The translations under genes and the position numbers were made by a program. Of a stretch of 11,466 nt of DNA, positions 934 to 11,466 are shown piece after piece. The first letter of the stretch is position 1; every line of letters starts with the position of its first letter. Source of the DNA: Candidatus Omnitrophota bacterium (GTDB lineage Bacteria; Omnitrophota; Gorgyraeia; Zapsychrales; Fredricksoniimonadaceae); assembly GCA_037141995.1 (NCBI GenBank), contig JBAXBM010000050.1, forward strand, positions 1 to 11,466, in the 5' to 3' direction. The notes under the pieces were generated by a model. The model saw nothing but the letters and a program-made list of their open reading frames with translations, made no database searches and was not told the origin of the DNA.

Positions 934-2130
934 ATGAATGTTACTTATTCGCATAGGGTTACAGAGATTCTTAGGAGCAGGCTTAAGGAGCCACGCAGGA
1001 CCATTCAAATTGTTCTTGGCCCACGGCAAGTGGGGAAATCAACCGCTGTTCGGGGGGTTCTAAAACAGCATGTTGGGCCGGTTGTTTATGCGTTAGCGGA
1101 TCAATCCATGCCACTAGGTTCAGAGTGGATCGCGCGTCATTGGGCTGAAGCGCGGTTGCAGGTTCAGAAAAATGAACGTGTGATCCTTGCGTTGGATGAA
1201 ATTCAGAAAGTCCCTGGTTGGACCAGTGATGTCAAGCGGCTTTGGGATGAAGATACATACAAAGAACGGGATATTCATGTTGTCCTGACGGGGTCTTCAG
1301 CGTTGACTTTGCAGAAAGGGCTTACGGAAAGTCTATTGGGGCGTTTTGAAGTGATCTGGATGCCGCATTGGTCTTTTGTAGAATGCCGGGATGCTTTCGG
1401 TTGGGGGCTTGAAGATTATTTCTTTTTCGGGGGATATCCTGGAGCAGTTGCTTATTGTCAGGATGAAGACCGTTGGCGTAATTATATGATGACGTCGATG
1501 ATCGAGCCGGTATTGACGCGTGATATCGCCCTGTTGACGACGGTACATAATCCCGCGCTATTGCGGAGATTATTGTTCCTGACGTGTGAATATGCTTCCC
1601 AGGAATTATCATACAGGAAAATCCAGGGAATATTTCAGGATGTCAGCAATACTGTGACGATCTCAGCCTATCAGCGAATGCTCGAACAGTCTTTCCTGAT
1701 AGCGGGTCTTCAGAAATGGTCGGGCGGTGCGCTTCAGAAACGAAATTCAAGCCCCAAGTGGCTGCCGTTGAACACCGGGCTTGTTACGGCTATTCAGAAT
1801 AAAAACAGAGCCGAGTTAAAGAATGATCCTGTATTCTTTGGTCGCCTCGTAGAAACGTCCATCGGGGCGCATCTTTTTAATCAGGCGATGCTTTTTAATT
1901 TTGAAGTTTATTATTGGCGTGACGGGAATATGGAGATTGACTTTATTTTCAGGAAAGGGAATAAACTGGTAGCCATTGAGGTGAAAAGTGGTTTGAATAG
2001 CGATACCAAGGCGTTTACAGTTTTTCTTAAGAAATATCCCGAGGCCAAAGTGATGCTTGTCGGAGGGCAAGGAATGCCTCTCGAAGAATTCCTAACAACA
2101 CCGATAAAAAGTTTTTTTGAGTCGATGTAG
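934..2130 (+). CDS. AAA+ superfamily ATPase, COG1373 type (AAA_14 N-terminal domain plus DUF4143 C-terminal domain)
   Basis: 398-codon ORF. Walker A GPRQVGKST, Walker B-like VILALDEIQ, and a central helical region typical of this family. The C-terminal EIDFIF...AIEVKSG resembles a D...E-x-K nuclease-fold motif. Confidence 0.88.
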   Translation: MNVTYSHRVTEILRSRLKEPRRTIQIVLGPRQVGKSTAVRGVLKQHVGPVVYALADQSMPLGSEWIARHWAEARLQVQKNERVILALDEIQKVPGWTSDVKRLWDEDTYKERDIHVVLTGSSALTLQKGLTESLLGRFEVIWMPHWSFVECRDAFGWGLEDYFFFGGYPGAVAYCQDEDRWRNYMMTSMIEPVLTRDIALLTTVHNPALLRRLLFLTCEYASQELSYRKIQGIFQDVSNTVTISAYQRMLEQSFLIAGLQKWSGGALQKRNSSPKWLPLNTGLVTAIQNKNRAELKNDPVFFGRLVETSIGAHLFNQAMLFNFEVYYWRDGNMEIDFIFRKGNKLVAIEVKSGLNSDTKAFTVFLKKYPEAKVMLVGGQGMPLEEFLTTPIKSFFESM

Positions 2131-3000: not shown

Positions 3001-3069
3001 ATGAAATATTTTCATGGTTTTCTGCTTTTTTATGTGGCATACTTGTTTCTGGTGGGTTTTATCCAATAG
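3001..3069 (+). promoter_or_regulatory. Conserved intergenic element, copy 1 (shared with 4750-4817); candidate promoter/leader of the SPFH gene pair
   Basis: 3003-3069 aligns with 4753-4817 at roughly 83% identity (hand alignment, one 1-nt indel). It contains an AT-rich hairpin/palindrome ATGAAA-TAT-TTTCAT (3001-3015), a T-rich tract, and TGGCATACTTGTTTCT (3035-3050), a partial match to the sigma54 -24/-12 consensus TGGCAC-N5-TTGCW. There are exactly 17 nt from the end of the element to the ATG in both copies. Confidence 0.5.
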
Positions 3070-3086
3070 ACCAAAAGGACAGATAT

Positions 3087-4067
3087 ATGCAGAATGAACA
3101 GGGATTGATCTTTAAAGGGATATATGAGTTTGAAGATCCGCTTGGCGTTCTTGTTGCCGCTAAGGTTCCGTCGGTTGGTACCTTGGATCTTTATTCCGGG
3201 ACGGCTGTTTTGGTCAAGGCCAATCAGTGCGCGCTGTTTATTTATAACGGCAAGATCGCCGATATTTTGATGCAGGGCTTGCACGAGGTCAAGACCGAGA
3301 ATTTTCCGCTTTTAACGCGGCTGGCCAACTGGCAGTTTGGGTTTGAAAGTCCTCTCCGGTGTGAGGTATGGTTTTTTTCTGGCGCTGTTTACACCAACAG
3401 GCGCTGGGGAACGTCTCAGCCAGTGATCTGTGATTTTCCGGATCACGGGATAGTGCCGGTGAGGGCGTACGGGATCTTTAATGTGGTCATGCGTGATCCC
3501 AATAAATTTTTTATGACGTTGATCGGGACGCGCAATGCGTACGATATAACTGAACTTGAGGGTCTGGTTCAGGCTCAGATCACGGAAATTCTTCCTGCGG
3601 CCATGCATGTTGTCCCGTCACTTCAGGACTTAAACAAGTCACAGACGCTGGTGGCAAAAGAACTGCAGGGGTTGGTCAATAAAACGATCGAGCAATACGG
3701 CATTGAAATTGTGAGCCTGCAGGTGATCTCGATGATCCCGTCGAAAGAGATCATGGAGGCGCTCGATGCCAAGGCGTCCATGAACATCATCGGCAATAAA
3801 CAGGAATATCTGCTTTATAAGGCGGCCAACAGCTTGATCGGGAGTCATGAGGGTGGTCATGCGAAAGGTTCCAGTGATTCCATGCAGTTGATGATGGGGT
3901 TGATGCTCGGGAAAAGCCTCCTGGATGCCAAGGAAAAAGAGCACACCATGCTGCTGAAAACAGAAGAAGCGCCTCCGATGATTGAAACAAGGTCATGTTC
4001 AAAATGTAAAGCTGTTGTCAAAGCCAGCGACAAGTTTTGTGCGTCCTGCGGAACGGAGCTGAAATGA
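3087..4067 (+). CDS. SPFH/Band-7 family protein with C-terminal zinc ribbon (COG4260, Pfam Band_7_1, B. subtilis YdjI-like)
   Basis: 326-codon ORF with SD AAGGA about 8 nt upstream. N-terminal pattern GTAVLVKANQCALFIYNGKIADILMQGLHEVKTENFPLL...GFESPLRCEVWFFS...VRAYGIFNVVMRDPNKFF is typical of the YdjI-like SPFH family. The C-terminus CSKCKAVVKASDKFCASCGTEL is a CxxC...CxxC zinc ribbon. Confidence 0.85.
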   Translation: MQNEQGLIFKGIYEFEDPLGVLVAAKVPSVGTLDLYSGTAVLVKANQCALFIYNGKIADILMQGLHEVKTENFPLLTRLANWQFGFESPLRCEVWFFSGAVYTNRRWGTSQPVICDFPDHGIVPVRAYGIFNVVMRDPNKFFMTLIGTRNAYDITELEGLVQAQITEILPAAMHVVPSLQDLNKSQTLVAKELQGLVNKTIEQYGIEIVSLQVISMIPSKEIMEALDAKASMNIIGNKQEYLLYKAANSLIGSHEGGHAKGSSDSMQLMMGLMLGKSLLDAKEKEHTMLLKTEEAPPMIETRSCSKCKAVVKASDKFCASCGTELK

Positions 4068-4738
4068 ACTTTGATATCATATGCCCCAATTGTGGTGCGG
4101 CATCTTCCATTGTGGTGGGTGTTTGCCCGTATTGCAAGACGGTCTTGTCTATTAATTCTGAGAAAGGGGATCATTCTCTGTCGGCGGTGAAAGCAGCCCA
4201 TGAAGCCGGAAAAACGGACAGGTCTCTGTCACTGGTGACGGCACTTGAACAGGAAAAGCCGGAGCTGCTGGATAATATTGAATTTGTTTTGTTGTATACC
4301 AGAATTCTTTTTGAAGTGGATGGGCCTTCCAGCAAGATCAAGTCTTTGCTGACCAAAGCCCTGATCCTGGCGCCCGGTCATCCTGATGTGTTGGAATATC
4401 TGGAAGTGATCGAGGCCGAGTCCATGATGACCCGGGAGCCCAATGATGAAGGTGAACAGCGTCTCATGCGACTCATTCGCCGCTCGCCCAATAATGTTTA
4501 TGCGTTGTTTTTCCTCGGGAGTCATTTGTTTTGGGTTCAAGGAAACGGTGGTGCTGCCCTGAAGTATCTTGAGCCGTGCGTCAGGTTGCGCCCTAATTTT
4601 ATACGGGCCAAGGCCTGTTTGGCGATGATCTACAAGGAATTAAACAAGCCGGATATGGCTAAAAGATTTTTTGATGAGTGTGCCGCCAGCACATCGAGCA
4701 ATAGGACGAAGTCATTTTTCAAAAGGCTTACGGATTGA
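4064..4738 (+). CDS. Zinc-ribbon plus TPR-repeat protein
   Basis: I place the start at ATG 4064, forming an ATGA overlap with the upstream stop (TGA 4065-4067). The ORF track's 4037 start would add 9 codons overlapping the SPFH gene. N-terminus CPNCG...CPYCKTVL is a zinc ribbon. The C-terminal half has TPR-like helical repeats (ALKYLEPCVRLRPNFIRAKACLAMIYKELNKPDMAKRFFDECA). Confidence 0.8.
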   Translation: MNFDIICPNCGAASSIVVGVCPYCKTVLSINSEKGDHSLSAVKAAHEAGKTDRSLSLVTALEQEKPELLDNIEFVLLYTRILFEVDGPSSKIKSLLTKALILAPGHPDVLEYLEVIEAESMMTREPNDEGEQRLMRLIRRSPNNVYALFFLGSHLFWVQGNGGAALKYLEPCVRLRPNFIRAKACLAMIYKELNKPDMAKRFFDECAASTSSNRTKSFFKRLTD

Positions 4739-4749
4739 TGCTCTAGCGG

Positions 4750-4817
4750 CCAAAATATTTTTTGGTTTTTTGCCTTTCTATATGGCATACTTCTTTCGGG
4801 TGGATTTTATTCAATAG
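4750..4817 (+). promoter_or_regulatory. Conserved intergenic element, copy 2; candidate promoter/leader of the 703-aa gene
   Basis: Homologous to 3003-3069. Hairpin/palindrome CCAAAA-TATT-TTTTGG (4750-4765), a T-rich tract, and TGGCATACTTCTTTCG (4783-4798). There are 17 nt from the terminal CAATAG to ATG 4835, the same as copy 1. Confidence 0.5.
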
Positions 4818-4834
4818 TCTTAAGGGGGTTAAAG

Positions 4835-6946
4835 ATGTTGGAAAAACTGTATTCATTTGCCGGATTCCGGAAATTGATTTGTTGGTTGATGGCTGTTGTT
4901 TTTTTGACGGGATCAGTGATGCCCTTATATGCGCAGGGTGTGGCCGGCCTTTCATCTTCCGGGATGATGAACGTAAGCCGGACATTCACGCCGCCGATTG
5001 TCAGGGGGATGACGATTGATCCCAAGGATCCGTTTGCTTTTAAGTTTCTGATGGACCGCGGGGATGACAAGGGGTTGTCCCTGGAGGCTCGGACGGCAGT
5101 TTATGAGAAGTTGATCAAATATTTCATGGCGTCATTGGCGGTGCCGGAAGAAGATGTCTGGGTCAACCTTTCTCCCTATGAAGGGGATCGTTTGATCGCA
5201 GATAATTTTGGCATGACCGTTATGGGGCGCGACCTTCTGGAAATGGATTATGCGTTAAAGCGTGTCACGGCATCGTTATTTCATCCTGATCAGGAGCCGG
5301 GGAAGGCGTTCTGGAAGAAGGTTTATCAGGCGGCCTATGAACGTTATGGGACAACGGATGTGCCGGTCGATACGTTCAACAAGGTCTGGATCGTTCCGAG
5401 TGAGGCAAAGGTTTATGAGGACGGCAATTCTGTTATTCTGGTGAAAAGCCATCTCAAGGTCATGCTGGAGCAGGATTATTTGGCGCAGAAAAAGAATGCC
5501 GCGGTACACCCCGATAACAAGAATGATAAAGATTCCCAGTTTTCCCGCGATATTGTGCGTGAAGTCATGATTCCTATTCTTGAAAAAGAAGTCAATGACG
5601 GCGAAAATTTTGCAGTGTTACGTCAGATCACCGCATCGCTGATCCTTGCCACCTGGTATAAGAAAGCCTGGAAAGATGTTTTGTTGAACCAGGGATATAC
5701 GGATCATTCCAAGGTCAAAGGCGTTGACCAGGATCCTGCTAATAACCAGATTATCTACAACCAATATGTGGAAGCATTCAAGCAGGGCGCTGTGAATCTG
5801 GTCCGTGAAGAATATGATACGTTATCGCAGGAAATGATGCCACGGAAATATTTCTCCGGCGGTTACGGCACAAAGATGACAACAGATGATGGGCAGACAA
5901 CGTCTTTACAGCAACGATTAGAAGAAGTATCTCAGTCGCCGATGTTGGATCCAAAGAAAACGGAGTTGGTGGCGGCGTCTTTGATGCCAACGGCAAGAAC
6001 AACAGTTGCCGGGTTATTCCGACCTGTTTCACGCTTGGCGCTTCTTATTGTGTTGTGGACAGGGGCTTTCTTTCAACCAACGACAGCGGCTTTAGCAGAA
6101 TATAGAAGTACACAAAGTTTTACATATACGAACGGTTCTAGAACTCAAAAAATGGAGTTGATTGTTACTGATCCTGGCGTTGTTGTGACAGATGTGTGGG
6201 ATACTCAATCAAAGATGCTACGTGATTTCACGGATACTGTAAATACAGTAATTATAATGTCTAGGAGTAATGAGTTAGGGGCCTTAGATACACTTGGGAA
6301 GCTTGAAGCAAGAGTCAAAGCAGGGAAGGCCTCAGAAGAGGCGATATTGAAGGGGTTGGTTCAAAAGCAATTTGTTGCTTTATTAATGAATGGGAAAAAG
6401 CCTGTTGATATATCTCCGTTTCTTCAAGCGTATACTGATTGTTTGCAAGAGATAGGGCGGGTACGAAAGACTATAGACAACAATAATAAGATACGGGCTT
6501 ATAATGAAGCTGTGGAGCAGAATAATGCTAAAGCACGAGAATTCAATAAAAATCAAGCGAAGTATTCCTCTGTTGTGAAGGGGTATGTTGAGATTTTTAA
6601 TAAGAAGCAACGTGACCCAGTAGAAATGAAAAAATTATCGGTAAGCATAGGTCAACTTCTTGCGCAACCAGATTTGCCTTCAAATTTCAGGGCAACTCTT
6701 CAGCAAATTAAAACATGGATAGATAAGGCGGAGAATGTAAAGAAACCAAAGCTTGTGACAGATAAGAATCTTGGTGGTATTGATTTGAATGCCAATTCTT
6801 TTAACCTTGAGGTTGAATCGCGTAAGGAAGCCAGGGGCTTGGTGTCTCCTGTTTTGGTTGATCTTGTTGCCCTTGAAGGCTTGAGCCCACGGATATTGTC
6901 CGTCACGTCCGCCAGTGAATATGTAAAGATGTTTTCAGGAAAGTAA
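4835..6946 (+). CDS. Large secreted or membrane-associated protein of unknown function, with an N-terminal signal peptide and an internal hydrophobic segment
   Basis: 703-codon ORF with SD AAGGGGG 6-7 nt upstream. The N-terminus MLEKLYSFAGFRKLICWLMAVVFLTGSVMPLYAQG looks like a Sec signal peptide. A second signal-peptide-like segment lies at aa 384-421. The C-terminal third is Lys/Asn/Gln-rich and looks coiled-coil-like. No family recognised. Confidence 0.8.
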   Translation: MLEKLYSFAGFRKLICWLMAVVFLTGSVMPLYAQGVAGLSSSGMMNVSRTFTPPIVRGMTIDPKDPFAFKFLMDRGDDKGLSLEARTAVYEKLIKYFMASLAVPEEDVWVNLSPYEGDRLIADNFGMTVMGRDLLEMDYALKRVTASLFHPDQEPGKAFWKKVYQAAYERYGTTDVPVDTFNKVWIVPSEAKVYEDGNSVILVKSHLKVMLEQDYLAQKKNAAVHPDNKNDKDSQFSRDIVREVMIPILEKEVNDGENFAVLRQITASLILATWYKKAWKDVLLNQGYTDHSKVKGVDQDPANNQIIYNQYVEAFKQGAVNLVREEYDTLSQEMMPRKYFSGGYGTKMTTDDGQTTSLQQRLEEVSQSPMLDPKKTELVAASLMPTARTTVAGLFRPVSRLALLIVLWTGAFFQPTTAALAEYRSTQSFTYTNGSRTQKMELIVTDPGVVVTDVWDTQSKMLRDFTDTVNTVIIMSRSNELGALDTLGKLEARVKAGKASEEAILKGLVQKQFVALLMNGKKPVDISPFLQAYTDCLQEIGRVRKTIDNNNKIRAYNEAVEQNNAKAREFNKNQAKYSSVVKGYVEIFNKKQRDPVEMKKLSVSIGQLLAQPDLPSNFRATLQQIKTWIDKAENVKKPKLVTDKNLGGIDLNANSFNLEVESRKEARGLVSPVLVDLVALEGLSPRILSVTSASEYVKMFSGK

Positions 6947-6971
6947 TAGTGGCAGGGTATTGAATATTTCA

Positions 6972-6999
6972 TCGACAAAATCACAATCAACCTTATAAT
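6972..6999 (+). promoter_or_regulatory. Sigma70-like promoter candidate upstream of ygiQ
   Basis: -35 TCGACA (6972-6977, 5/6 match), 16-nt spacer, perfect -10 TATAAT (6994-6999). The predicted start near 7006 would put the 7053-7181 element in a ~175-nt leader. Confidence 0.4.
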
Positions 7000-7052
7000 G
7001 GCGCTGTTCAGGCGGGATTAATGGCTGGCGGCGCTATGAGAAAATCGTAGAT

Positions 7053-7181
7053 GTTTAGCGCCTTGTGTGCTCGCCGCGCCGAGCGCCGAGTGCTTTTTCG
7101 CCTGGAACGAGGGGGTTTATCCCCCGAGAGAAGCCGAAAGAGTGGCGCGGTATGGCAGGCGAGAAATCGAATGCGCTAAAC
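7053..7181 (+). repeat. 129-nt structured intergenic element, copy A (candidate cis-regulatory or REP-like structured RNA; family not recognised)
   Basis: About 82% identical to 8965-9095. Five nested stems: P1 7053-7061/7173-7181, P2 7070-7075/7158-7163, P3 7076-7080/7144-7148, P4 7093-7100/7135-7142, P5 7111-7115/7121-7125. Four compensatory changes relative to copy B. Confidence 0.7.
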
Positions 7182-8960
7182 ATGCATAAAAAAACTTCGT
7201 TTCTTCCCATGTATCTTGATGAGATGGCGGCTCGGGGGTGGGGTGAGCTGGACGTTATTATCATCAGCGGCGATGCGTATGTGGATCATCCTTCCTACGG
7301 CACGGCATTGATCGGGCGTCTCCTGGAAAGCAAGGGTTATCGCGTGGGTATTATCGCCCAGCCGGACTGGCGGTCGCTGGATGATTTTACGCGCCTGGGG
7401 CGTCCGCGTTTGTGCGTTTGTGTGACGGCGGGCAATGTGGATTCCATGGTTGCCCATTACACGGCCAACAAGCGGCGGCGGCAGGGGGATGATTTTGCGC
7501 CGGGCGGCAAGGACGGCTTGAGGCCGGATCGTGCGGCGATTGTGTATGCTAATCGTGCTAAGGCGGCATTCAAGGGCCTGCCGGTGATCCTGGGCGGTGT
7601 TGAGGCCAGCATGCGGCGCTTGGCGCATTACGATTACTGGGATGATGCGGTGCGGCGTTCGGTATTGATCGATGCCAAGGCGGACATGATCATTTACGGC
7701 ATGGCAGAGCGGCCTGTTGTGGAAGTGATGGCGCGGCTGGCGCAGGGTGAGGCGATCGCAGCGATCCGTGATGTGCGCGGCACCGTGGTGCGTGTGAAGC
7801 CGGCGGAATTTCCTGCGGGGACGATAGAATTGCCGTCGTTTGAAGATATCAGCCGTGACCCTGAAATTTTTAACCAGGCATTTCGCCTGGCTTATGCGGA
7901 AATGTCGCCGGAAGACGGCAAGCCTTTGGCCCAGCGGCATGCGGATCAGTGTGTGCTGCAATTGCCCCCGGCATTGCCATTGACACCTCAAGAACTTGAC
8001 GCCGGTTATGATCTGGCGTATGCGCGCACATGGCATCCGTCGTATGATGCCTTGGGCGGCGTGAAGGGTTTAGAGACAGTGCGCTGGTCGATCACAGCGG
8101 TGCGCGGCTGTCCCGGGGAGTGTCATTTTTGCGGGATCACGTTCCATCAGGGGCGGATCGTGCAGAGCCGGAGCGTGGCGTCCATTGTGCGGGAAGCTGA
8201 AGGCCTCGCGCGCGACCCGGCGTTTCGGGGGACGATTCAGGATGTGGGCGGGCCGACAGCGAATTTATACGGTGCCAGTTGTGCCAATTGGAATAAAGGC
8301 CGGGTATGCCGCGGCAAGCAGTGCCTGATGCCATCGAAATGCCCGTCGCTGGATCTGGGGTGCCGGGAAGCGGTTTCCTTGTATGAAGCGATACGGCGTG
8401 TGCCGGGCATAAAACATATGTTCGTGCAGAGCGGTTTGAGGTATGATCTCTTGCTCGAACCGGCGGCGCTCGATTATTTCAAGGTGTTATGCCGTTATCA
8501 TGTCAGCGGGCAGATGAAGGTGGCTCCCGAGCATACATCCGACGAGGTTTTAGCGCTCATGAACAAGCCGCCCTATGCGCGGTATGAGGCTTTTGTCCGG
8601 CTTTTCAATGAGATCAATGCGGGGCTTGGCAAGAAGCAGTTTCTGGTGAATTATTTTGTCAGCGCGCATCCCGGGGCAGGGCTTAAGGAAGCGTTTGATT
8701 GTGCGTCAATGCTTTTATCCCGCGGGATGCATCCGGAACAGGTGCAAGATTTTCTGCCTTTACCCATGACGGTATCGGCGTGCATGTATCACACGGGGAA
8801 GCATCCTCTGACGGGCAAGAGTGTTTATGTGCCGCGGAAAGACAATGAACGCGCGATGCAGAGGGCCCTTGTGCAGTCGCAGAATCCTGGTAATGCGCCC
8901 TTGATTGACAAGGCGCTTAATATTTTAGGTAAACAGGGAGTTAAGAAAAAATTTAAATAA
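7182..8960 (+). CDS. ygiQ: YgiQ-family radical SAM protein (UPF0313)
   Basis: The N-terminus KTSFLPMYLDEMAARGWGELDVIIISGDAYVDHPSYGTALIGRLLESKGYRVGIIAQPDW closely parallels E. coli YgiQ (FLPMSREEMDQLGW...VTGDAYVDHPSFG...RVGIIAQPDW). Radical SAM CxxxCxxC motif CPGECHFC at 8109-8132. The start is uncertain. The ORF track begins at 7065, but codons 1-39 are a read-through of the repeat element. ATG 7182 is the first Met after it, and ATG 7152 is an alternative. Confidence 0.88.
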   Translation: MHKKTSFLPMYLDEMAARGWGELDVIIISGDAYVDHPSYGTALIGRLLESKGYRVGIIAQPDWRSLDDFTRLGRPRLCVCVTAGNVDSMVAHYTANKRRRQGDDFAPGGKDGLRPDRAAIVYANRAKAAFKGLPVILGGVEASMRRLAHYDYWDDAVRRSVLIDAKADMIIYGMAERPVVEVMARLAQGEAIAAIRDVRGTVVRVKPAEFPAGTIELPSFEDISRDPEIFNQAFRLAYAEMSPEDGKPLAQRHADQCVLQLPPALPLTPQELDAGYDLAYARTWHPSYDALGGVKGLETVRWSITAVRGCPGECHFCGITFHQGRIVQSRSVASIVREAEGLARDPAFRGTIQDVGGPTANLYGASCANWNKGRVCRGKQCLMPSKCPSLDLGCREAVSLYEAIRRVPGIKHMFVQSGLRYDLLLEPAALDYFKVLCRYHVSGQMKVAPEHTSDEVLALMNKPPYARYEAFVRLFNEINAGLGKKQFLVNYFVSAHPGAGLKEAFDCASMLLSRGMHPEQVQDFLPLPMTVSACMYHTGKHPLTGKSVYVPRKDNERAMQRALVQSQNPGNAPLIDKALNILGKQGVKKKFK

Positions 8961-8964
8961 TGGT

Positions 8965-9095
8965 ATTCAGCGCCCTGTGTTTTCGCCGCGCCAAGCGCCG
9001 AGTGCCTTTCCGCCTGGAACGAGGGGGCCGCAGCCCCCGAGAGAAGCCGGAAGGGTGGCGCGATAAGGCAGGCGAAAAGATCTGATGCGCTGAAC
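8965..9095 (+). repeat. 129-131-nt structured intergenic element, copy B
   Basis: Same architecture as copy A: P1 8966-8973/9087-9094, P2 8980-8987/9071-9078, P3 8988-8992/9057-9061, P4 9005-9012/9048-9055, P5 9023-9027/9034-9038. It starts 5 nt after the ygiQ stop and ends 31 nt before the ABC-F start. Confidence 0.7.
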
Positions 9096-9125
9096 GTGTG
9101 CAATTAAACAAGAGAGGTAATCAGC

Positions 9126-10745
9126 ATGATCACGGTTAATAATGTTACGCTTCAATATGGCCAGCGGAAACTTTTTTCCGGTGTTAATATCAGTTTCTCC
9201 CAGGGTAATTGCTACGGCCTTATCGGCGCCAATGGATCCGGCAAATCAACGTTCCTGAAGATCTTGTCCGGCGAGATTGACTCAACCGAAGGTACAGTGG
9301 CCATTGATCCCGGCAAGCGCATGTCGGTGTTGCGCCAGGATCATTTTGCGTTTGATGAGCAGACGGTTTTGACAACGGTCATCATGGGGCACAAGCGGCT
9401 TTTTGATGTCATGCTGGAAAAAGACGCCATTTATGCCAAGGCAGATTTTACTGATGCCGACGGCATGCGTGTTTCCGAGCTGGAAGCCGAGTTTGCGGAA
9501 ATGGACGGGTGGAACGCGGAATCTGATGCCGGCAAACTCTTGGCGGAACTGGGGATCGCGACCTCAGCGCACACCCAGCAGATGAAACAGCTCGAGGGCG
9601 GCGACAAGGTGCGTGTGCTGTTGGCCCAGGCGCTTTTTGGCAATCCCGATATCCTTCTTCTCGACGAGCCGACGAACCATCTTGATGTCGAGACCTGCAT
9701 GTGGCTGGAGGAATTTCTTTCCCGTTTCGAGAATACGGCGATCGTTGTTTCCCATGACCGCCATTTTCTCGACAATGTGTGCACGCATATCGCCGACATT
9801 GATTTCGGGAAGGTTAAGATTTACTCCGGCAATTATACGTTCTGGTCGGAATCAAGCCGCCTCGCCGCAAAGCAGCGTAGTGAAGAGAATAAGAAGGTCG
9901 AGGACCGCCGCAAGGAATTGCAGGATTTCATCGCACGCTTCAGTTCCAATTTGTCAAAGTCGCGTCAGGCAACAAGCCGTAAAAAGATCCTCGAGAAACT
10001 TGTCATCGAGGACATTGAACCGTCTTCGCGTAAATATCCGTATGTGCATTTTGAGCAGGAACGCGAGGCCGGCAACGACCTCTTGGGGGTGGATGATCTG
10101 GCCAAATCTTTGGACGGGCAGGTCATGTTCAAGAAGTTATCATTTACGATTGAAAAGGGAGACAAGGTGGCTTTTGTGGGATCCAATGATCTGATCAAGA
10201 CGACACTTTTTCAGATTCTCATGGGCGAACTTCCGGCGGATAAAGGGACGTTCAAGTGGGGCTTCTCGACAAAGCGCGCCTATTTCCCGAAAGACAATGC
10301 CGAATATTTCAAGTCTGATCTCAGTGTCGTTGACTGGCTGAGGCAGTATTCCGAAGAGAAGGCCGAAGTTTTTATCCGCGGCTTTTTAGGCAAGATGCTT
10401 TTTACCGGTGAAGAATCCCAGAAACCGGCCAAGGTCCTTTCAGGCGGCGAGAAAGTCCGCTGTATGCTTTCACGCATGATGCTCATGAAGCCCAACGTTG
10501 TGATTCTCGACGAGCCGACCAGTCACCTGGATCTCGAGTCGATCACCGCACTCAATGAGGGGCTGAAGCGCTTTAAGGGCACGATCCTTTTCTCGTCGCA
10601 TGACCATGAGCTGGTGCAGACCGTCGCCAACCGCATCATCGAGATCACGCCGGCGGGCATGATCGACCGTACGGGTACAACGTTTGATGATTATCTGTCC
10701 GATGAACGCGTCAAAACCCTGCGGGCAGAGTTTGCCAGGGTTTAA
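9126..10745 (+). CDS. ybiT: ABC-F family ATPase with two nucleotide-binding domains, YbiT-like
   Basis: 539-codon ORF with SD GAGAGG about 8 nt upstream. NBD1 has Walker A GANGSGKST (9225-9251) and Walker B ILLLDEPTNHLD. A Lys/Arg-rich inter-domain linker (SRFSSNLSKSRQATSRKK) follows. NBD2 has signature LSGGEKVR and Walker B VVILDEPTSHLD. Overall collinear with E. coli YbiT (NVT.Q.G...YGLIGANGSGKSTF.KIL.G...LRQD.FAF.E.TVL.TVIMGHK). Confidence 0.88.
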   Translation: MITVNNVTLQYGQRKLFSGVNISFSQGNCYGLIGANGSGKSTFLKILSGEIDSTEGTVAIDPGKRMSVLRQDHFAFDEQTVLTTVIMGHKRLFDVMLEKDAIYAKADFTDADGMRVSELEAEFAEMDGWNAESDAGKLLAELGIATSAHTQQMKQLEGGDKVRVLLAQALFGNPDILLLDEPTNHLDVETCMWLEEFLSRFENTAIVVSHDRHFLDNVCTHIADIDFGKVKIYSGNYTFWSESSRLAAKQRSEENKKVEDRRKELQDFIARFSSNLSKSRQATSRKKILEKLVIEDIEPSSRKYPYVHFEQEREAGNDLLGVDDLAKSLDGQVMFKKLSFTIEKGDKVAFVGSNDLIKTTLFQILMGELPADKGTFKWGFSTKRAYFPKDNAEYFKSDLSVVDWLRQYSEEKAEVFIRGFLGKMLFTGEESQKPAKVLSGGEKVRCMLSRMMLMKPNVVILDEPTSHLDLESITALNEGLKRFKGTILFSSHDHELVQTVANRIIEITPAGMIDRTGTTFDDYLSDERVKTLRAEFARV

Positions 10746-10749
10746 CTAT

Positions 10750-11466
10750 CTATTTTAGTATTGTTATCAGTTCCTGCGGGGAAACGATGCGGACGAAATC
10801 GACGGCGCGGGGATGCTCGACCGGGCAGACACAATAACAGGGGACGTCAGGATATTCCGTGTGAAAGGCTTTAAGGCCTGTCAGGTCGCGCAGGCCAATA
10901 TGCGGGGTGGATTTGCATTCAATGGCATAGAGGATGGACGCTCCGCGGCTGATCAGCAGGTCAACTTCAGCTCCATTGTTTGTGCGCCAGAAGTTGAATT
11001 TCCAGTCGAGCTGGTGGTATTCATTGAGGTGTGTCAATTCCTGGATAACCCATTGTTCAAACAGTCGGCCTTGTTGGATCGGGTTGTTGTTGTCTCTAAG
11101 GGTTCCCAGGATCGAGCGGGTGACGCCATTATCAAAGAAGTAGAATTTCGGGCTATGGCTCATCCTTTGACGCAGGCTTTTCAAATAAGGGAAAATAAAA
11201 AAGCCGATGAGGGTATCTTCAAGGATGGCGTAATATTCCCGGACCGTTGATAATGAAACCTGGCATTCCCGGGAGACGGAAGAAAAATTGATCTGTTGGG
11301 CAAATTGAGCCGCCGCAATATCAAGAAAATTCTGAAACCCGTTAAGGTTTCGCACCAAAGCTTCGGCTTTGATTTCTTCGCTGAGGTAGGCAACGGTGTA
11401 GGCGCGCAGGAGATCTTGTGCCTGGTCCATTTTATTTTCCAGTAGCAGGCTGTAAATTCTTGGCAT
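10750..11466 (-). CDS. AAA+/DUF4143 ATPase paralogue, C-terminal ~238 aa only (the N-terminal ATPase domain probably lies beyond the window edge)
   Basis: The ORF runs to the window edge. YLSEEIKAEALVRNLNGFQNFLDIAAAQFAQQINFSSVSRECQVSLSTVREYYAILEDTLIGFF is the typical DUF4143 region. The C-terminal EVDLLI...AIECKST (10912-10968) repeats the D...E-x-K motif seen in the 934-2130 protein. No Walker A is visible, consistent with 5' truncation by the window. Confidence 0.82.
   Translation of the reverse strand: MPRIYSLLLENKMDQAQDLLRAYTVAYLSEEIKAEALVRNLNGFQNFLDIAAAQFAQQINFSSVSRECQVSLSTVREYYAILEDTLIGFFIFPYLKSLRQRMSHSPKFYFFDNGVTRSILGTLRDNNNPIQQGRLFEQWVIQELTHLNEYHQLDWKFNFWRTNNGAEVDLLISRGASILYAIECKSTPHIGLRDLTGLKAFHTEYPDVPCYCVCPVEHPRAVDFVRIVSPQELITILK

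Follow-up and report, generated by a model that had tools for sequence, protein, structure and literature searches.

A probable MITE family of long imperfect palindromes in Candidatus Omnitrophica, with two independent insertions in a ygiQ/ABC-F operon

The stretch of DNA analysed here (11,466 nt of a Candidatus Omnitrophota contig; hereafter the window) carries a GC-rich repeat twice on its + strand, once on either side of ygiQ. We conclude that this repeat is very probably a MITE, that is, a non-coding, non-autonomous DNA transposon built as an imperfect palindrome. The diagnosis rests on its small size, lack of coding capacity, inverted termini, 8-bp target-site duplications (TSDs), dispersal, division into sequence subfamilies and the presence of empty sites in relatives. 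A literature search on Omnitrophica MITEs returned no papers, and the family is a previously undescribed one in Candidatus Omnitrophica. Coordinates of the two copies, their duplications, the surrounding genes and other features mentioned below are given in table 1.

Table 1. Location of the repeat copies, their duplications and other features. Positions refer to the window unless another locus (L number) is named.
Feature	Position	Strand	Basis
MITE copy A, full element 141 bp, subfamily 1	7047..7187	+	alignment, boundary/TSD analysis, fold
MITE copy B, full element 143 bp	8959..9101	+	17-copy alignment, boundary/TSD analysis, fold
Left TSD, copy A, AGAAAATC	7039..7046		raw sequence, TSD analysis
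Right TSD, copy A, AAAAAAAC	7188..7195		raw sequence, TSD analysis
Left TSD, copy B, ATTTAAAT	8951..8958		raw sequence, TSD analysis
Right TSD, copy B, AATTAAAC	9102..9109		raw sequence, TSD analysis
ygiQ (YgiQ-family radical SAM)	7182..8960	+	Pfam PF08497/PF04055/PF11842, homologues, C-terminal translations
ABC-F ATPase gene	9126..10745	+	start overlaps ygiQ stop by 14 nt in relatives
Sigma-70-like promoter match, TCGACA-16-TATAAT, 11/12	6972..6999	+	consensus scan
hp2 copy	L005 3405-3515	+	
hp2 copy	L005 5011-5116	-	
hp2 copy	L012 8790-8891	-	
AAA_14 + DUF4143 gene	934-2130	+	
AAA_14 + DUF4143 gene	10750-11466	-	
AAA_14 + DUF4143 gene	L001 3558-4709	-	
AAA_14 + DUF4143 gene	L001 4890-6095	+	
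AAA_14 + DUF4143 gene	L019 1-283		

The sequence at 8965-9095 repeats that at 7053-7183 on the same strand, with 89% identity in ungapped blocks, and each copy forms a single long imperfect hairpin (MFE -63.9 and -69.4 kcal/mol). Compared with dinucleotide shuffles, the hairpins have z-scores of -5.4 and -5.3, and 0 of 200 shuffles folded equally well. This bears out the original prediction, made from the letters of the window, of a structured element present in two copies; its remark that the fold is followed by no T-run was also correct, as neither a T-run nor a terminator was seen after the fold at either window copy. Rfam covariance models gave 0 matches at E<=1 over the whole window on both strands. 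The apical loop varies in length by 1-3 nt among copies, which breaks any common reading frame, and the element is non-coding. A protein-coding reading was considered, with an ORF open through the subfamily-2 copies, but it was rejected on account of these loop-length differences. The peptide read from the ATG of the element matched no long protein among 5.8 billion, only two spurious calls of 41-46 aa.

When 185,579 species genomes were searched with a pattern based on the hairpin apex, three copies came to light, in two Candidatus Omnitrophica MAGs; a looser pattern matched 14 stretches of metagenome contigs, most of them from Ga0114951 and SESG01, the latter of which includes the contig of the window. 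MAGs with the element include AM4_bin-704 and Umea1p4_bin-199, along with bins from Ga0114951 and SESG01. After removal of duplicates, 17 distinct copies were aligned. An 18th, located between sufB and sufC, surfaced through a spurious 46-aa ORF that gene callers predict in the element. Wherever a match fell in a named genome, that genome was a Candidatus Omnitrophica MAG, and the total stands at 18 insertion sites at unrelated loci on freshwater Candidatus Omnitrophica contigs. The neighbouring genes have nothing in common: they include pyrF/tRNA-Val, cinA, an FtsJ-like methyltransferase, a PIN-domain gene, sufB/sufC and others, and a further neighbourhood comprises a GAF-ANTAR regulator beside a type III glutamine synthetase. 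Most copies lie 5-45 nt from a gene end, and those situated between co-directional genes are in the sense orientation in eight cases and antisense in four. The suggestions that the repeat is dispersed and that the genome would hold further copies were thus well founded.

Paired positions separate the copies into two subfamilies, with GCTTTTTCG/CGAAAGAG in one and GCCTTTCCG/CGGAAGGG in the other. The nearest relative of copy A lies on another contig (L018; 91.5% identity), whereas copies A and B share 79% identity, and we conclude that the insertions in the window took place independently of each other. A local tandem duplication giving rise to copy B from copy A was rejected on the same grounds (79% identity, and copy A closer to the L018 copy), along with the different TSDs of the two copies. 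The case in which these would be the only two copies, made by local duplication, had been put forward as one that would overturn the idea of a dispersed repeat; with 18 sites and independent window copies, it does not hold. Presence or absence of single copies could mark populations in the source lake metagenomes. In one locus (L014 9283-9332) we also observed a remnant of about 50 nt, in which an internal deletion has fused the 5' tip CATGTT of the MITE with its 3' third; a gene begins downstream of it, near 9358.

Gene calls of 41 and 46 aa within MITE copies (P0121 and P0122; L001 1768-1893) are spurious, and the 602-aa YgiQ model (P0001; window 7152-8960) starts at an ATG inside copy A. 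For annotation, the consequence of the family in Omnitrophica genomes is thus a supply of spurious small ORFs and a mis-called ygiQ start.

Similarity begins and ends abruptly in the 17 aligned copies, whose flanks are unrelated. On the basis of this alignment and a check of the flanks, the ends of the element were set 7 nt before TT(T/C)AGCG and 6 nt after CT(A/G)AAC. In the alignment, bases are conserved past the hairpin, with a consensus of GTnnATG before TTTAGCG and nTGTnC after CTAAAC. With the ends corrected in this way, element length ranges from 134 to 145 bp across copies. The termini read GTnnATGTTTAGCGCC... and ...GGCGCTAAACnTGTnC, each the reverse complement of the other, and the fold-back takes in the entire element, with the terminal stem paired in 15-17 of the 17 copies. 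The tips of copy A read GTAGATG... and ...ATGCAT, and those of copy B AATGGTA... and ...GTGTGC, so that 8965-9095 corresponds to the hairpin core of copy B. By this alignment, the element had originally been drawn 6-7 nt too far inward at its ends, and the hexamers quoted as its flanks (GTAGAT/ATGCAT for copy A and ATGGTA/GTGTGC for copy B) are the element's own tips. This is why the initial reading reported no TSD at either copy.

Once the ends are corrected, 8-bp direct duplications are found to flank the element. The match between left and right flanks averages 5.24/8 over the 17 copies, versus 2.46/8 in controls in which flanks of different copies were paired together, a mean that was reached by 0 of 20,000 permutations. 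At least 6 of the 8 positions match in 10/17 copies, compared with 1.5% of controls. Two duplications are perfect (8/8), with CATTCTTT on either side of the L016 copy and TGAACCGA on either side of the sufB/sufC copy (L024). Many others are imperfect (5-7/8), including those of copies A and B, which each match at 6/8. The L015 copy matches at 2/8 when 8 nt are compared, but has a 9-bp duplication matching at 8/9. In four of the 17 copies (L002, L004, L005m and L017) the flanks match at 2-3/8 only and the duplication is absent; L005m directly adjoins another repeat. That the copies might have flanking duplications and a cognate transposase had been named beforehand as the sign of an ordinary MITE, and of these two features the duplications are in place.

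The duplications bear directly on the first of two explanations favoured in the original prediction, a REP/BIME-like repeat, considered here as a REP/BIME- or REPIN-like repeat mobilised by RAYT, an IS200-like tyrosine transposase. The element shares with such repeats its palindromic, intergenic and dispersed character, and a REPIN doublet is of roughly similar length. To our knowledge, however, IS200/IS605-type and RAYT-type mobilisation leaves no TSD, and the 8-bp duplications speak against this origin. REP-type repeats also consist of palindromic units of 20-40 nt, often in tandem, and occur in very high copy number, whereas the element described here is apparently a single unit of 141-145 bp in modest copy number. 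By eye, no short unit is repeated within the arms in the alignment; the profile scan returned single dispersed copies with no tandem BIME-like clusters; and the inferred density, roughly one further copy for every 55 kb of flanking sequence, is far under a typical REP load. We therefore regard mobilisation of this type as very improbable. Both this explanation and the second one, a shared leader, had rested on the supposed lack of TSDs, which arose because the boundaries were mis-set.

Relatives that carry the same genes at the same place offer an independent view of the two insertions. YgiQ homologues with 86% (L019/L020), 74% (L026/L027) and 73% (L021) identity were traced to their contigs. 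In each of these relatives the ygiQ/ABC-F pair is present with a 14-nt overlap and copy B is absent; copy A is absent from L019, L021 and L026. The spacer upstream of ygiQ in L019 is 72 nt long without the element, a profile search detected no copy of the element in L019-L021, and none was seen when the region upstream of ygiQ in L026 was read directly. The comparison of orthologous ygiQ-ABC-F spacers proposed at the outset thus shows three relatives with neither copy.

The insertion junctions were read from the raw sequence. The site of copy A reads ATGAAAAAATCTTCC in L019, where the target AAAAAATC occurs once, while in the window the element lies between ATGAGAAAATC and AAAAAAACTTCG. Copy A thus reads as an insertion just after the ygiQ start codon that duplicated AAAAAATC. 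At the site of copy B, L019 reads TATTTCAAACAGAGAGGCAGCAGGCATG, with a single related stretch, TATTTCAAACAGAGAGG, at the position of the left TSD; in the window the related AAATTTAAAT precedes the element and AATTAAACAAGAGAGGTAATCAGCATG follows it.

These empty sites weigh against the second explanation, in which the repeat would serve ygiQ and the ABC-F gene as a common cis-regulatory leader or as a small-RNA gene in its own right; as first proposed, the leader would be bound by a common trans factor. Both window copies do lie upstream of a co-oriented gene and both fold stably. The element is nonetheless missing from the same operon in three relatives, in which the two genes overlap, and other copies have unrelated genes as neighbours, lie at 3' ends or run antisense. 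Any leader or riboswitch is disfavoured by the missing element in orthologous operons and by the mixed orientation, and the earlier view that the element is not a metabolite riboswitch was right for these reasons and for the unrelated neighbours. Also counting against this explanation are the lack of a terminator after the element, of a promoter-like site inside or immediately upstream of either window copy (the nearest being the ygiQ site about 50 nt before copy A), of a conserved promoter block shared by the 17 upstream flanks as judged by eye, and of any Rfam match. We give almost no credence to either form of this explanation. As a MITE, the element is an ordinary genomic parasite and not a regulatory RNA.

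The element resembles known bacterial MITEs in being small (under about 500 bp) and non-coding, in its terminal inverted repeats, fixed-length TSDs and dispersed copies, and in having sequence subfamilies and empty sites in relatives. It differs in being near-palindromic throughout, rather than consisting of two short repeats around an unrelated core. In size and in its long-hairpin shape it comes close to the ERIC/IRU elements of Enterobacteriaceae and Vibrio, imperfect palindromes of about 127 bp, which likewise enter transcribed spacers in either orientation and keep their hairpin through paired changes. The host phylum is different, however, and no sequence similarity emerged in the plasmid collection against which the element was compared; the TSD is 8 bp here and at most very short for ERIC. 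The Correia elements of Neisseria (CREE/NEMIS) are also MITEs, of 100-155 bp, with long inverted repeats that form hairpins in mRNA; they often lie a few bases from the starts or stops of genes and can alter gene ends and expression. Correia elements duplicate TA rather than 8 bp, and they contain IHF and promoter motifs, whereas no such motifs were found in the Omnitrophica element.

A non-autonomous element would depend on a transposase encoded elsewhere, presumably the DDE enzyme of an IS with matching ends, that binds the inverted termini. Such an enzyme would cut its target with an 8-bp stagger and insert the element, and repair would leave the 8-bp direct duplication. The targets would be short and in many cases rich in A+T, most of them no more than a few tens of bases from the start or stop of a gene. 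The repeat family, its ends and duplications, the empty sites and the independence of the insertions are shown directly by the sequences; the transposase, its cut-and-paste or copy-and-paste chemistry and any effect of the element on expression are matters that we infer. An nhmmer profile run over the 205 kb of fetched loci returned short copies only and no parent IS or transposase with these termini; the terminal-repeat pattern likewise gave no parent IS in viral contigs, and blastn of the element against plasmids produced only chance-level matches. No transposase family is present among the Pfam-annotated genes of L019-L027, L002-L018 being partly annotated. Two clues to the parent family are the length of the duplications, 8 bp and in one case 9 bp, and the consensus GTnnATG at the tips. 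The IS66/ISBst12, IS256, ISL3, IS1595, IS6, IS1 and ISH6 groups, which we take to generate duplications of 8 or 8-9 bp, are leads on this basis.

In the window, members of the two different subfamilies entered the ygiQ/ABC-F operon independently: copy A landed just 3' of the start codon of ygiQ, and copy B where the two genes overlapped by 14 nt. The former ygiQ ATG (7036-7038) is now a relic heading a 4-codon ORF that ends at a TAG (7048-7050) in the tip of the element, and the in-frame ygiQ ATG (7182) is supplied by the 3' tip of copy A, ATGCAT. At the other end of the gene, the ygiQ stop codon TAA (8958-8960) is made up of the last base of the duplication and the first two bases of the element, and the C-terminus of YgiQ in the window is 9 aa shorter than that of L019. 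The GAGAGG Shine-Dalgarno sequence (9112-9117) and ATG (9126) of the ABC-F gene are intact to the right of copy B; these two positions and that of the ygiQ stop had been correctly assigned from the start. The operon would have survived because the tips supply an in-frame ATG and complete a stop codon, and the ABC-F ribosome binding site was left intact. The window is thus an example of a MITE at a start codon and in a gene overlap that did not kill the operon.

The stop/start overlap is exactly 14 nt in the three relatives examined, represented by five contigs (L019 7790-7803, L021 7775-7788 and L026 2043-2056). Its conservation implies that the radical-SAM enzyme is translationally coupled to the ABC-F translation factor, a coupling that insertion would have undone in the window.

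The sigma-70-like promoter match upstream of ygiQ has the same hexamers and spacing in L019. Given this conservation, both MITE copies probably lie inside the ygiQ/ABC-F transcript, if the predicted promoter is used. The RNA hairpin carried in that transcript would be a by-product of the palindromic DNA.

Another way to read the same family is as a MITE in origin whose inner hairpin has come under selection, as a processing or stabilising stem-loop or a protein-binding site comparable to those of Correia and ERIC elements. In the subfamily-2 copies the inner stems are 96-98% identical, versus 70-76% for roughly the outermost 25 nt on either side. Neutral decay of a MITE would not give this contrast, which ascertainment explains only partly: the search pattern lies centrally in the element and inflates central conservation. 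Eight of 38 predicted pairs keep their pairing through changes on both sides, some of them far from the termini and some seen in single copies (such as L012, L017, winB and L024). The deep paired changes hint at constraint on the hairpin itself. Imperfect palindromes are, however, 'corrected' by template switching, which can yield paired changes with no need for selection. The sense strand folds better in 17 of the 18 copies because of two near-invariant G-U pairs, which may equally be inherited from a founder. Both window copies are co-oriented with the operon and downstream of the promoter-like site, but 4 of the 12 copies between co-directional genes are antisense, and the relatives do well without the element.

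Given ascertainment, the possibly inherited G-U pairs and template switching, we think it unlikely that the hairpin is a selected module. The same small chance is allowed to the wider proposal that the inner two-thirds of the element constitute a structured-RNA or protein-binding module, spread through Omnitrophica operons on a MITE chassis. The family would pose a new biological question only if the conserved inner hairpin proves functional. Its internal loop is invariant and purine-rich (GGAACGA / GAGAGAAG). Two specific identities were examined by eye and set aside: a sigma-54 promoter in the conserved TGGAACGA...GC, for which the GG-N10-GC spacing misfits most copies, and a K-turn at the internal loop, where the tandem G-A pairs abut the apical helix and there is no 3-nt bulge.

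A second palindromic repeat, unrelated to the first and designated hp2, was observed in the fetched loci. It is about 105-110 nt long, runs from GGNTTGCGGCATGCCTTG to CAAGGCATGCCNCAANCC, and its copies are about 90% identical. All three copies present in the 205 kb lie within 100 nt of a MITE copy, one of them directly abutting it, and the L012 copy has ACCGGT at both flanks. This repeat is probably another MITE family, and the inner hairpin, if it is a module, might act together with it. The L005 locus also contains two inverted MITE copies (3612-5257) that bracket a GAF-GAF-ANTAR regulator gene (3771-4994). This regulator gene directly precedes one for a type III glutamine synthetase (5337-7565). 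Paired RNA hairpins are the targets of ANTAR regulators.

Two further observations concern the window as a whole. Positions 3010-3078 and 4758-4826 share an upstream block of about 69 nt with 80% identity, which ends about 9 nt before the ATGs of an SPFH/Band-7 protein (3087) and of a 703-aa protein of unknown function (4835). The invariant core of the block, ATGGCATACTT, is also found upstream of an 839-aa gene in L019 (3279-3323). The block resembles a promoter or leader common to these genes; its spacing does not match that of a canonical sigma-54 -24/-12 site. Finally, paralogous ATPase genes with AAA_14 and DUF4143 domains cluster around the operon; a segment of about 15 kb of the source genome contains at least four.
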